Source: Mobula hypostoma (Eukaryota). Taken from it: DNA of 64,000 nucleotides. The notes below the pieces were generated by a model. It worked only from the letters and a program-made list of their open reading frames with translations. It searched no databases and was not told the origin of the DNA. Shown one piece after another: positions 36,849 to 42,236 of the stretch; position 1 is the stretch's first letter; each line of letters starts with the position of its first letter. The DNA is taken from contig NC_086108.1 in NCBI RefSeq assembly GCF_963921235.1, positions 79,052,001-79,116,000 of the forward strand. Reading direction: 5' to 3'. The position numbers were made by a program, and so were the translations under genes.

Positions 36849-37376
36849 TGTAACCGGGTGACCGTCGGATCTTATTCAGTATCGTTAAAAGTGTACTTAA
36901 GCATCCATCCGGGTAATGCTGGAATAGTTGGCTGTGCCTTTAAGGGAGACGGTGATGTCATTACGCACACGCGGGATAGTGGGGAGACCATTTTGCTTTC
37001 TGCTGAAGACGTGGTTAAGGTATTGGAAGTGGATTCTTCCCAGAGTATGCTGGGCATGGTGAGGAAAGATTTCCACGAGTGAAGAAATCAATGCTGGGTA
37101 GCGTGGCTTATACCAAGTTCCTCACCATCCAAGATTGCCACCACCGTATTTGTACCCTATTACTTCTGGTAATTTTATACTGCATACGCAATTCTGTCCG
37201 TACACAAGGGTGTGAATCGGAAGTTAAACTGAGATTGTAACGGCAAGAACTGGTTGTAAATTCGTTCGTTTTGTTTTGCGACCTTCTTCTGGCACTTAAA
37301 CATTGAAAACCGTTAAAGGAATTAAAACCCGAAGAAGTCTTTGTGGTCCTGAGCGTGTACTTTTCCTCAGGCTACA
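36849..37376 (+). repeat. 5' LTR
   Basis: Direct repeat of 41704-42236, roughly 90-93% identical by eye. Confidence 0.96.
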
Positions 37377-37914
37377 AAATCTGGTACCAGGAGTGGGGCT
37401 AATTCCAAGCCAGTTTAGAGGGTCTCTGATTGCTGTATGCAGTATATTATACAGTACCTAATACAGTAGTGGTGAAGACAGGACTGTGTTCCCATCGGGT
37501 GGAAGGAGACAGCGCAGTAGAGCCTTGTGGAAAGCGCGCAGGAACCTCGGGAACGGGCCGGGACGTCAGCGACTGACGTCAGGATGCAGAGCGGTGACGT
37601 GGACCTCGGGGACTGCGGGCCGTGAAGCCATCGCATCTGCAGCAAAGGACAGCAGCAGCTCCTTTCTGCAGGCTTGTTGTGTGAACTTTAAAGGCTTGAG
37701 GTTTTACTATGTCATGCTCAGAGGATATACCAGTTGAACTTGATCTGAATGAACAAATTAGTGAATTGTGTAGTAGGTACGATGAAGCCATGGCAACCAT
37801 AGATAAATTAAGCAGAAGGTCCTATGTATATGTCCCAAGGGAAAGGCACATTGTTCCATTTACGGGGGATGTTGAGAAAGATGGGAGGTCTGTTGATGAC
37901 TTTATTGAAGAAAT

Positions 37915-38487
37915 TGGTTGGTTGGTTGTTCGTCCATCGTTGACGTCGATGAGGACCTCGACACCATTATGATGGTGTCGAGACTAGCGCGTGATTTGGA
38001 TTTAAGTGAGGGAGAGTTGCGCAGCGTCAGCCTCACTCTCTGTTCCCAATTCCCATCTGGATCCAGTGGCAAGACAGAGTCTAGACGGCTGGAGATGGGA
38101 CTAGGCGCAGTGGATGACCAGGACGTCTTCTGTGTCTTGTCCTGCTCTACACGTTCCACGACGCTTGCAGAGACCGCCTTCTCAACCGTTGGACCTTCCA
38201 TTGGTCTCGTCCACTCAATCCGCCGGAGTCTGTCTTCACATGCTGGGATAGACAACTTCCTATCACACCGAGGGTTTGAGACCCATCGGCTACCCTCCCC
38301 TGGTTTAGCCGGCTTGTCGAAGCCGTTGCCCGGGGTGTGGCTGCTGTTGCATGCAAACATCTACGAGGAGCCACAGGTGAGAGCTGAGTGCCAGGTGGGG
38401 ACCAAAGGTGGACTAACCGCCCTGAAAAGGACGCGACATGTTCCCCCACCAGAGGTGCTACCCCTCCCTGACACCCCATACACCCCA
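37915..38487 (-). mobile_element. 573-bp non-coding retroposon (RTE-like 5' region, (CAAC)n tail)
   Basis: 11-bp TSD attgaagaaat (37904-37914, 38488-38498); minus strand ends ggacgaacaaccaaccaacca; removing it restores the gag frame. Confidence 0.9.
38295..38486 (-). ncRNA. HDV-like self-cleaving ribozyme at the 5' end of the retroposon
   Basis: P1 GGGGUGU/ACACCCC; P2 CUCACCUGU/ACCAGGGGAG; P3 GGC/GCC; L3 begins UCCUCG; GG-GCAA-C; P4 GGCUU(CGAC)AAGCC; J4/2 GGCUAA with catalytic C at 38308. Confidence 0.82.
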
Positions 38488-39339
38488 ATTGAAGAAATAC
38501 AACGTGCACTTCATACTAGAAATCAGTCTGACCAGGATCAGTATGACTTTGTTATGTCCCTACTCGGGTGCAGCCTTAGAAGAAGCACGTATGCGCAGTG
38601 ATGCTGGGGAAGACCATGCTGATGACTTGTTCACCTATCTCAGGGAAGCTTTTAGAGTCAAATGTAGTGCACCCCAGCTGTGGCATGGCTTCTACAGTCG
38701 CAAGCAGCTTGAGGGTGAAGATGTACGAGAGTTTTCCCATGTCCTAGCTCAAGCTCTTAACTTGATACTGAAGCACTCCCCTGATGCCATGACTGATAAG
38801 CGGCGGTGCTAAGAGACCAATTTATAGAGGGGATCAGGGATCTTTCCCTCAGAAGGGAGCTCTACAGATTCGTGTGGAACCACCCTGAATCCTCAATGAT
38901 AGAAGTGAGGGAGGAGGCTCGTCTGTGGCTTGTAGAAGAGCCCCTGGGAAATACAAGGTCTGGAAAGTCAAAGTGTAGCAGTGGCCAGGCACAGTGCTCG
39001 ATTCTTAAAGCTCCGGAATCTGAGTCAGTCACACTAGATGACATCCTTAAAGTAGTCGCAGAGCAGGGCAAAGCCCTTTGTGAATTGACTCAAGCAGTGA
39101 AAGATCTCACTGTACAGAGGGATTTTACACGCGCTACTAGGGGCAGACGTAATTTACGGCCTAGGTTCACAGAAGATGGGCAGCCAATATGTTTCAAGTG
39201 TCAGGTGGGAGGACATTTGGCCAGGAATTGCCCACGGAAGCGGGGTGCAAGGGAAATGGAGTCTGCATCCTCCTGCCCTCGAGGTTGGGAGTCGGGCAAT
39301 TCGGCGGAACCTCACAGATAATGTACAGCTACCCTGTGA

Positions 39340-39690
39340 CCAGTTGCTGCAATGCGCTATAGGGACATGTCCAGTTGTGGAGCATGAAGTATCAGGTGTC
39401 GTTGTCCGTTGGACACAGGTAGTCAGGTAAGCACCCTGACCGAACAGTTCTTTCGAGAACACTTGAATGGAGAGGATGAGGAAATGTTGTCCATTGATGG
39501 CTGGCTTAGGCTAGCAGCTGCAGACAGTCTTGATATTCCTTACTTTGGGTATCTAGAGCTAGAGGTTCAAGCAATGGGCATGAAGATACCAAATTGTGGC
39601 TTTCTAGTAGTCAGGGATCCTGTTAGCACCGAACCACCTATCCCATGTATTGTGGGCATGAACATTATCAGCCATGTAAGCAACTTGTCT
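39340..39690 (+). pseudogene. Retroviral-type aspartic protease of the Gypsy element
   Basis: DTGSQVST...LAAADSLDIPYFGYLELEV...CIVGMNII. Confidence 0.88.
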
Positions 39691-40393
39691 ATGCAGTGTT
39701 TGACTTCGATGTCCAGTATCGTTCGGGTCGGAACGATACCGTGGCTGATGCACTCTCTAGGCAGCCATTTGCGGGGGAGCCTGAGCCTGTCTCAGAGGAT
39801 GCAGAGTTTGATGGGGCTGTGGCGATTGGTAGTTTGGTCAATCACGGCACTGCCCTTGACCTGGCACTGGTTACTGCTGGTCTTAACGGCTGTAGGGTTA
39901 AGCAGATTCGAGCCTGGGAAGCTGGTACTAGCGATGTAAGTGGTCCGACCCAAGGGAACACTCCAACCCTCCCAGGTTATTCTAATGGGGACTTGCGTAC
40001 TTTTCAGCAGCAAGACCCTGCGTTAACTGTCCTAAGAGACTTATGGGATCAGAAAAGGAAGCTGAGTGGCCAGGAGCGAAAAACTCTGCCTAAACCTGTT
40101 TTGTCTCTGTTAAGACACTGGGACAGTATCAGGGAGCGTAAAGGGTTACTGTATAGGGTAGTTGAGGATGAGAAGCTTGGGGAGTGTTACCAGCTTCTGG
40201 TACCTATCAGCTTGAGGAGCAAAGTGTTAGAGTATGTACATGATTCTATGGGTCATCAAGGCATAGAACGTACTCTGCAGTTGTTGTTTTTGGGTGGGCA
40301 TACACGAGGATGTGGCACGGTGGGTCAAAAATTGTCCATGTTGTGTACTAACTAAGATGCCACAGCCTAGGATCCACCCCCCCCCCCCACCCC

Positions 40394-41563
40394 ATGAAGT
40401 CATTTCTGGCTTCTAGGCCGCTTGAAGTTGTAGCTGTAGATTTCACTGTGTTGGAGCCGGCAACTGATGGGCGTGTGACTGTCTTAGTGGTCACGGACGT
40501 TTTCACTAAATTTACCCAAGCATTTCCGACTCGGGATCAAAAGGCGGATACCACAGCAAGGGTGCTCTTGAGGGAATGGTTCATGAAGTATGGTGTTCCT
40601 GAGAGATTGCATTCTGACCAGGGCCATAACTTCGAAAGTGAGGTCATAGTGGAGCTTTGCAAACTATACGGGGTAAAGAAGAGCCGTATCACACCTCATC
40701 ATCCTACTGGAAATGCGCAGTGCGAGCGTTTCAACAGGACGATGCACGATCTGTTGCGTACGTTGCCTCTAGAAAAGAAGCGCAGACGGCCAGAACATCT
40801 ACCGGAGTTGGTGTATGCATATAATGCGACACCTCACGCCACCACCAGGTATTCACCTTGCTATCTGTTGCTTGGGGTGGATCCCCACTTGCCCGTGGAT
40901 GCTCTGCTGGGGCAAGAACAGACTGTGGACTGGAAACATGACTGGCTAGCTGTACACCAGAGCCGGCTGAGGGATGTGCATGCCAGAGCAAAAGAATACT
41001 CTGAGCAGAAGGCGGCAGAATGCATTGCCTGGCAGGAGGACAAAGTGTACTGTCCCAAAGTTGATGTGGATGCACTGGTTTACTTGAGGAACAGACCGTT
41101 AGGTCGTAATAAGATCCAGGATGCTTGGAACTCAGCCGTCTACAGGGTAGTAGAGGTACTGGGCAGCACCTACACTGTGGAACCTTGGGAGGGTGGGCCT
41201 AGCAAAAGGGTGAACAGGGTAGACATAAGGCCCTGTGAGAACCATCCCACTCCAGCTACCCGAAGGAGACTGCAAACTCCAGTAACTCAGGCCGGCTCGC
41301 CCCTGGGGCATGAATCAGATTCTGAGGATTCAGAAAATGGTGTGATATTGGTAGAAGATGTGTCAGAACAGGGTGCACAGACTCTTGACCCTAGCCTAGA
41401 CAGCATATCTTCTGAAAATATGACACCTTCTGGAACTGAGACAGGGGAGCCGATGACGGCTAATGCAGGGGCAGAGGTTGGTAGCCCTCCTGTGGCAGCA
41501 CCCCGCAGGAGTAAACGAGTAGATGCTGGACAGCACCCTAACCCACGTTGCGAACCAAGATGA
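40394..41563 (+). CDS. Gypsy integrase core and C-terminus (open 389-aa frame; upstream HHCC part frameshifted)
   Basis: PLEVVAVDF...VTDVFTKF...LHSDQGHNFES...GNAQCERFNRT: DDE triad present. Confidence 0.88.
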   Translation: MKSFLASRPLEVVAVDFTVLEPATDGRVTVLVVTDVFTKFTQAFPTRDQKADTTARVLLREWFMKYGVPERLHSDQGHNFESEVIVELCKLYGVKKSRITPHHPTGNAQCERFNRTMHDLLRTLPLEKKRRRPEHLPELVYAYNATPHATTRYSPCYLLLGVDPHLPVDALLGQEQTVDWKHDWLAVHQSRLRDVHARAKEYSEQKAAECIAWQEDKVYCPKVDVDALVYLRNRPLGRNKIQDAWNSAVYRVVEVLGSTYTVEPWEGGPSKRVNRVDIRPCENHPTPATRRRLQTPVTQAGSPLGHESDSEDSENGVILVEDVSEQGAQTLDPSLDSISSENMTPSGTETGEPMTANAGAEVGSPPVAAPRRSKRVDAGQHPNPRCEPR

Positions 41564-41703
41564 GGTCTCCATAAGTCCGGCAGCAGTGTCTGAGATACTG
41601 GCTAGTCTCAGTTCAGTTCTCTTTAGAGAAGCAGTTAAGGAAGTTAAAAGTACCCTTGTAGTGAGCGAGTAATCGAGGACGATTACTTGAATACAGAGGA
41701 GAA

Positions 41704-42236
41704 TGTAACTGGATGACCGTTGGATCTTATTCAGTATCGTTAAAAGTGTACTTTGGAATCCATCTGGGTAATGCTAGAATAGTTGGCTGTGCCTTTAAGG
41801 GAGACGGCGATGTCATTACGCACGCGCGGGATAGTGGGGAGACCATTTTGCTTTCTGCTGAAGACGTGGTAAGGTGTTGTAAGTGGGTTCTTCCCAGAGT
41901 ATGCTGGGCATGGTGAGGAAAGATTTCCATGAGTGTAGAAATCAACACTGGGTAGTGTAGCTTATACCAAGTTCCTCACCATCCAAGATTGCCACTACCG
42001 TATTTGTACCGTATTAGATCTGGTGTTTTTTTTTATATACTGCATACGCAATTTTGTCCATACACAAGGGTGTGAATCGGAAGTTAAACTGAAATTGTAA
42101 TGGCACGAACTGGTTGTAAATTCATTCGTTTTGTTTCACAACCCTCTTCTGGCACTTAAACATCGAAAACCGACAAAGGAATTAAAACCCGAAAAAGTCT
42201 TTGTTGTCCTGAGCGTGTACTTTTCACCAGGCTACA
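41704..42236 (+). repeat. 3' LTR
   Basis: Direct repeat of 36849-37376. Confidence 0.96.

Follow-up and report, generated by a model that had tools for sequence, protein, structure and literature searches.

Bipartite derivatives of RTE LINEs form an established class (PMC5786205, PMC7245038, as far as the accessible text of both goes), and the examples lacking an ORF that are named in the available part of Kojima 2018 (PMC5786205) are RTE-N2_Lch, RTESINE1/2, WALLSI3, MAR4_MD, and Bov-A. The same part states that it is not known what gives rise to bipartite elements, and it cites a predicted RTE ribozyme without giving a fold, which is given here. Short derivatives headed by a ribozyme have been proven for R2 (PMC3414825) and in trypanosomes (PMC4035085), according to the excerpts of these papers that are available: the R2 SIDEs and the R2/R1 hybrid SIDEs join a 5′ HDV-like ribozyme to a 3′ UTR and are mobilised in trans (PMC3414825), and NARTc, RIME, and the SIDERs carrying the Pr77 ribozyme are short, dispersed, and retain the ribozyme at their 5′ end (PMC4035085). 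Ribozymes of RTE elements have been reported as well (PMC6765202, in its accessible sections); those of Ruminski et al. 2011, as presented in the available portions of PMC6765202 and PMC5786205, have the same HDV-type 5′ fold in elements without a promoter of their own.

The element considered here lies at 37915..38487 on the minus strand of a 64,000-nt stretch of the Mobula hypostoma genome (the window) and is a whole non-autonomous bipartite RTE element of 573 bp. Like the bipartite RTE LINEs, so far as the accessible descriptions of these go, it combines an extreme 5′ end with a short 3′ end and has neither an ORF nor a small-RNA head. With the R2 SIDEs it has in common the 5′ HDV-like head, the 3′ UTR, and the proposed mobilisation in trans. 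However, the R2 SIDEs of the available account derive from R2, sit only in 28S rDNA, and are rare, whereas the present element is RTE-derived, dispersed, and present in more than 1,000 copies; its dispersed sites and RTE-type parent exclude it from the R2 SIDEs, although the two would work alike. NARTc, RIME, and the SIDERs differ, in the same partial sources, by belonging to the Ingi/L1Tc clade and by a compact 77-nt ribozyme doubling as a promoter, whereas the head of the present element is 192 nt long, with a long J1/2 and a hairpin in L3. The class of bipartite or ribozyme-headed short elements (R2 SIDEs, NARTc, RTE-N) is thus known; what is new, judged by the titles, abstracts, and passages searched, is that the junction forms the loop of a helix in which the 5′ UTR pairs with the sequence following the stop codon. 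We consider it probable that the element is a non-autonomous RTE that arose from an ORF-deleted, ribozyme-headed LINE, is freed by read-through transcription and predicted self-cleavage, and is mobilised in trans.

At the locus, the 573-bp minus-strand insertion that had been proposed by an earlier sequence-only reading is borne out. It has an exact 11-bp TSD, one copy of which lies on the element's 5′ side (38488..38498), the other on its 3′ side (37904..37914). The empty site is represented by one contig of run X19, which joins 37905 to 38490. The predicted cut before G 38486 is one base away from the TSD, as had been remarked, the base between them being a T at 38487 that lies outside the TSD and is probably non-templated. 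Downstream of the head follow the rest of the RTE 5′ UTR (37971..38294) and the RTE 3′ end (37915..37969), which starts at approximately the ORF stop codon and comprises a terminal hairpin and an (AACC)n tail, all on the minus strand. The claimed lack of coding capacity holds for the sense strand, because the ATG at 38360 that opens a 152-aa frame there depends on an A private to this copy (1/94 copies); on the plus strand, a 230-aa frame spans the element. Likewise, the absence of a tRNA head stands: ARAGORN finds 0 tRNAs in the element, A and B box motifs are absent, and the head is LINE UTR, so that a tRNA-derived SINE (SINE2) is ruled out. The element is inserted antisense within the gag-like region of a decayed Gypsy-like LTR element on the plus strand (36849..42236, outside the element proper), which has direct repeats of ~530 bp, a zinc knuckle, and an integrase. 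The ~530-bp terminal repeats of this host (36849-42236) are 91-94% alike, and the stretch that they enclose showed no RT frame.

The head (38295..38486) looks like a predicted HDV-like self-cleaving RNA of unusual shape, in which the helices P1, P1.1, P2, P3, and P4 are present in the order of the nested double pseudoknot. HDV-like ribozymes open a P1 of 6-7 bp with a purine at +1, and so does this copy, whose first pair is G-C. The 5′ strand of P1 (38480..38486) is followed by a 98-nt J1/2 (38382..38479), whose long predicted stem (MFE −45.8 kcal/mol, z −2.3) absorbs a second, identical GGGGUGU (38477-38471) that is a candidate for an alternative P1 strand. After the 5′ strand of P2 (38373..38381) comes the P3 unit (38339..38372), with P3 itself formed by 38372-38370 and 38341-38339 and enclosing a 28-nt L3; the latter holds the U-C-C that includes the C-C strand of P1.1 (38368-38367), as well as an inserted hairpin of 6 bp (38361-38356 paired to 38348-38343). 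The 3′ strand of P1 (38338-38332) and the GG of P1.1 (38331-38330) occupy 38330..38338, the P4 hairpin 38310..38325, and J4/2 together with the 3′ strand of P2 38295..38309, where the putative catalytic C at 38308 is followed by N-A-A and where P2 has a bulged C (38303) and a mismatch (38298).

The HDV-like helices that the sequence-only reading had named (P1, P3, P4), the CC/GG pairing of P1.1, and the G-G-C-U-A-A segment with C 38308 were all found. The L3 of HDV-like ribozymes typically measures 7-8 nt. The close match to the genomic HDV core that had been claimed therefore breaks down at L3, which is 28 nt long with a 6-bp hairpin, and the head is a variant HDV-like fold rather than a canonical member; for comparison, P1.1, P3, and L3 together take 15 nt in the accessible part of PMC3774820, implying a short L3. 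The start of L3 as UCCUCG is correct for this copy but not for the family, in which 85 of 93 copies have C instead of U at 38366. Both strands of P2 exist as proposed, but their pairing is not intact here, the mismatch at 38298 being private (G in 1/96 copies, T in 94), and this copy does not pass when a strict P2 of 6 bp is required. In folding models, the isolated core of this copy misfolds and that of copy L002 forms P2 and P3. HDV-like ribozymes are known to be faster with a large, structured J1/2 (PMC4908430, in the part available).

A descriptor search recovers the core only when a long L3 is permitted, giving one core in the 64-kb window versus 5 cores in 162 random 64-kb windows. Rfam, run on the window and on the element, returned no match to the head at either threshold. 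Single-strand folding of the 198-nt head, by a method blind to pseudoknots, gave z −0.96.

The fold is conserved beyond this genome. A gapped motif scan of metagenome contigs yielded 36 matches, 15 of which we read as homologues, several continuing into an RTE-type UTR or ORF start; viral contigs yielded 1 match. The covariation alignment comprises 10 of the 15 homologues (four truncated ones and one duplicate were left out), the window copy, and two copies of LINE family F1, its 13 rows amounting to ~7-8 lineages. Pairing is found in 90.7% of 334 cells, compared with 28-44% in slid-partner controls, and 13 of the 26 pairs change on both sides, a result reached in 1 of 500 shuffles. The proposed HDV-like fold does covary: both sides have changed in 4/9 pairs of P2 (92% of cells paired), 5/6 of the L3 hairpin, and 4/6 of P4 (82% of cells paired). 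P1, counted apart in 11 sequences, has 74 of 77 cells paired and three both-side changes, with the 5′ strands of the homologues having been chosen by complementarity; its first pair is G-C, G.U, or A-U across homologues. The invariance of P3 and P1.1 in the metagenome rows is set by the search pattern and has no evidential value, the catalytic C being likewise fixed by the pattern in these rows. J1/2 folds better than its shuffles at z < −2 in 7 of 11 sequences. The strict descriptor is passed by 5 of the 15 homologues (8/15 when one P1 mismatch is allowed), by 0 of the other 21 matches, and by 36 of 61 family copies, and a relaxed one by 3 of 30 copies of family H, an older bipartite family described below.

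It is conceivable that the fold is kept for another job, such as protein binding, translation of uncapped LINE RNA, or RNA stability, the L3 hairpin having abolished cleavage. The insertion makes L3 four times as long as usual at a place adjoining the active site, Rfam has no match, the modelled minimum-energy form of this copy is a misfold with an extended P3, and family H lacks the GCAAC linker. However, the putative catalytic C 38308 is kept in 92 of 95 family copies, the homologues conserve P2 and not the extended P3, and the head is retained in short families that translate nothing, such that we regard a non-cleaving fold as improbable. The preferred reading remains that the head cleaves before G 38486.

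A core 26-mer occurs exactly 1,123 times in the 3.48-Gb genome, and the family thus has at least 1,123 copies; identity to the element is 95-100% among the best 40 of 4,618 candidates. Two samples of 30 loci each, taken in genome order by a core pattern and by a tail pattern, were inspected. Copies start at position 1-2 (G1 or one base before) in 21/30 core-pattern and 14/30 tail-pattern loci and reach position 5 in 25/30 and 17/30, the remainder being ordinary 5′ truncations. The anticipated clustering of 5′ ends at G1 is thus seen, and upstream of −1 nothing is common to 61 copies, in which columns −2 to −12 are mixed; contigs of two other runs (79 and 10) break at 38487 without a common flank. 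All 30 tail-pattern loci have the short form, and the family comprises many copies with one junction and no ORF. Exact TSDs of 7-14 bp flank 49 of 56 copies versus 109 of 3,080 mismatched flank pairs, and their length peaks at 11-12 bp when the 7-bp search floor is left aside; TSDs of 7-15 bp, mostly 10-12, are given in the available text of PMC6007223. In L040, L055, L133, and L200, 5′ parts are inverted or deleted in a manner resembling twin priming.

Identical 5′ ends would also result if Pol II started at the same base from a promoter inside the UTR; the fold may then cleave as well, and the element would not be promoter-independent. There is a precedent in L1Tc/NARTc, whose Pr77 combines promoter and ribozyme in the same 77 nt (PMC3383444, accessible part), and Kojima 2018 (PMC5786205), in the portion available, anticipates that bipartite LINEs are transcribed by Pol II. 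Moreover, 42 of 60 copies with an intact G1 carry a T at −1, −2 being unbiased, and this T could mark a start site. We nevertheless find a promoter unlikely to set the end, which coincides with the first pair of the covarying P1 in every family examined, while −1 varies between families and a T is also found ahead of junctions at G2-G4 and of deeper ones. By analogy with R2, the T at −1 is probably an untemplated dA on the cDNA, variable non-templated bases being described at R2 5′ junctions in the accessible part of PMC3774820. Among truncated junctions, 22/39 have the T, a share that differs neither from that of full-length copies (p 0.20) nor from background (p 0.26). The frequent T and the two identical P1 strands raise the further question of whether cleavage occurs elsewhere, either before the U at −1, which would then form a U.G wobble, or ahead of the other GGGGUGU at 38477, especially as single copies begin at 9 and 11 and F1 starts differ by whole repeats. 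With −1 being A, C, G, or T in the homologues and hence not conserved, the second repeat sequestered in the modelled J1/2 stem, and starts at 9-11 making up 1/30 of the core-pattern sample, we give a shifted cut site very little credence.

The 30 core-pattern loci include one LINE (L085, extended as L318; family P). Positions 49-517 of the element are 94% identical to L318:314-782, this LINE copy being 5′-truncated; after the matched part, L318 continues with more UTR and an endonuclease-RT frame, so that the RT motif sits between the two matching ends, and then matches positions 520-563 with 91% identity (L318:3685-3728), the 3′ end and microsatellite tail being common to both. Because these identities flank the ORF of L318, the element is, judged by sequence comparison, the 5′ UTR of a family P LINE (1-517) joined to its last ~55 bases, with the ORF deleted. 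The UTR of family P is present in at least 40 further copies. The idea of a separately built SINE-like family thus gives way to an internally deleted RTE LINE whose ribozyme was inherited from the parent, and the dependence on RTE that had been postulated is supported, since both ends match an RTE-type LINE of the same genome. The clade label rests on the RT motif of family P, which we take to be of the RTE type, on the single-ORF layout, and on likeness by eye to RTE-derived sequences. Searches for the parent by way of the 3′ tail gave LINEs in 0/30 and 0/30 loci; of 2,521 sites with the RT motif, the 40 inspected yielded relatives and 3′ fragments only. A related family, E, had been considered as the mobiliser and was dropped once the family P parent was found; Pfam detects endonuclease and RT domains in the relatives E and F1.

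In the mechanism that we propose, copies would be transcribed by read-through from host promoters, and the ribozyme would cut before G 38486 to release a unit-length RNA. The RTE protein of family P would bind the 3′ tail in trans and reverse transcribe to the cut end, often adding the untemplated dA that is read as T at −1.

The same ribozyme head is found in intact LINEs of this genome and in RTE 5′ UTRs of metagenome contigs. LINEs of family F1 open with it (69-70% identity to the element, from positions 2 and 10); in F1, the seventh pair of P1 is a C.A mismatch, and the starts are ragged, spreading over 1-3 tandem 9-mers. In L257-L286, the 5′ strand of P1 is this tandem 9-mer, present one to three times, and a spare strand could rescue copies from which a few bases are lost at the 5′ end. 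A separate bipartite deletion of F1 is represented by L261, and L260, L265, and L284 pass from the UTR into the ORF. Family E has the body and tail in common, but its head is GC-rich and lacks the ribozyme; at 28 of 30 loci the 5′ ends spread over 260-809 nt, and the remaining two loci belong to a single larger duplication. Since L226, a metagenome relative of family E, carries the ribozyme head, family E may have exchanged this head for host-gene sequence. Some family E heads (L202, L207, L218, L197) begin with a coding fragment resembling methylmalonyl-CoA epimerase, with an E value of 1.6e-19 to a PDB chain and a Pfam match to Glyoxalase_4, and tandem GC-rich monomers of ~40 nt precede a family E copy at L188:130-330. 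Family H (L288-L317) is an older bipartite family of ~500 nt, with copies about 72-75% alike and 357 exact motif matches. At 11 of 30 loci its copies begin 114-117 nt upstream of the motif, which is the same start as in the element; the linker after P1.1 is altered, and the 5-bp hairpin at its presumed junction matches the outer arm in LINE L178.

The deletion junction of the element lies inside the 4-nt loop (37971-37968) of an 11-bp hairpin (37957..37982, minus strand), between a 5′-UTR arm (37982-37972) and a 3′-UTR arm (37967-37957); the modelled fold of the 3′ 81 nt has z −3.3. Both arms are present in the parent LINE, 2.9 kb apart, the 3′-side arm lying behind the stop codon. In four LINE families, whose sequences differ at these two places, the same complementarity exists, with 12, 13, 10, and 11 pairs when one mismatch is allowed and one copy is taken per family. 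As controls, cross-family pairs give 5-10, and 0-38 of 272-412 body windows are as good. Without a mismatch the helix of family E has only 7 bp, and the arms of F1 and of family G cross-pair partly (10 and 7). The helix segments of family E are near-fixed (28/29 and 8/8 copies). By duplex energy, the UTR arm is the best partner in just one of five LINE copies, and 0-51 of 111-137 body windows equal it. The marsupial WALLSI1/1A junctions in the available part of the Kojima 2018 supplement form a similar hairpin by eye, and these elements also resemble ours, by eye, in the 3′ body and tail type. The position of the junction suggests pairing between the two ends of these retrotransposon RNAs, and pairing of the 5′ UTR with the post-stop bases may explain the formation of bipartite elements by RTEs. 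More tentatively than the steps above, such pairing in the parent RNA might loop out the ORF, and an RT that skips it would generate the element.

The UTR arm is also a site of fusion. In 14 of 60 sampled heads (4/30 P-type, 10/30 F1-type), the UTR is fused within or at the end of the arm to a tRNA-like SINE, called by A and B box-like motifs by eye, without support from Rfam and ARAGORN; Rfam returned nothing relevant on two compound loci. The tail of the fused SINE is that of the same LINE family in 4/4 P and 9/10 F1 cases, with one interrupted. The 3′ join does not vary, the one on the 5′ side shifts by several bases, and TSDs enclose the whole compound unit in the readable copies L079, L263, L268, and L274. 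The P-type join pattern (≤2 mismatches) occurs at 32 more sites, a few of them expected by chance, and the SINE head motif has 485 occurrences. Free SINEs with a P or F1 tail were not found in 999,560 bases, and three free SINE copies carry other tails. The flanks of L164, L187, and L022 contain free copies of the head and body of the tRNA-like SINE, joined to at least three other tails. Recurrent template switching fits the compound copies best, the alternative being a few compound masters. In the accessible argument of Kojima 2018, a ribozyme would remove a SINE head, whereas here the SINEs lie downstream of the ribozyme-bearing UTR.

A wider scheme, to which we give distinctly less than even weight, would join these observations: a clasp of 10-13 bp between the UTR and the post-stop bases would circularise the cut, uncapped RNA and act as a recurrent hot spot of template switching that makes bipartite elements; tail-only tRNA SINEs would pair with the arm in trans, such that the RT jumps from SINE to LINE UTR and yields ribozyme-UTR-SINE fusions; and the ribozyme, with its L3 hairpin, would belong to an HDV subtype that is widespread and escapes current models. 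Neither the L3 hairpin nor the end-to-end helix was found in the titles, abstracts, and text passages searched.

The covarying L3 hairpin would widen the HDV fold and point to many genomic ribozymes that are skipped by searches with a short L3. The end-to-end helix offers a testable answer to the question, posed by Kojima 2018, of why few LINE clades, RTE first among them, make bipartite elements. A rule of UTR-UTR pairing would also be of practical use, because the UTRs of RTE-1_MD serve as templates for RNA-only gene insertion (PMC13708176, in its available part).
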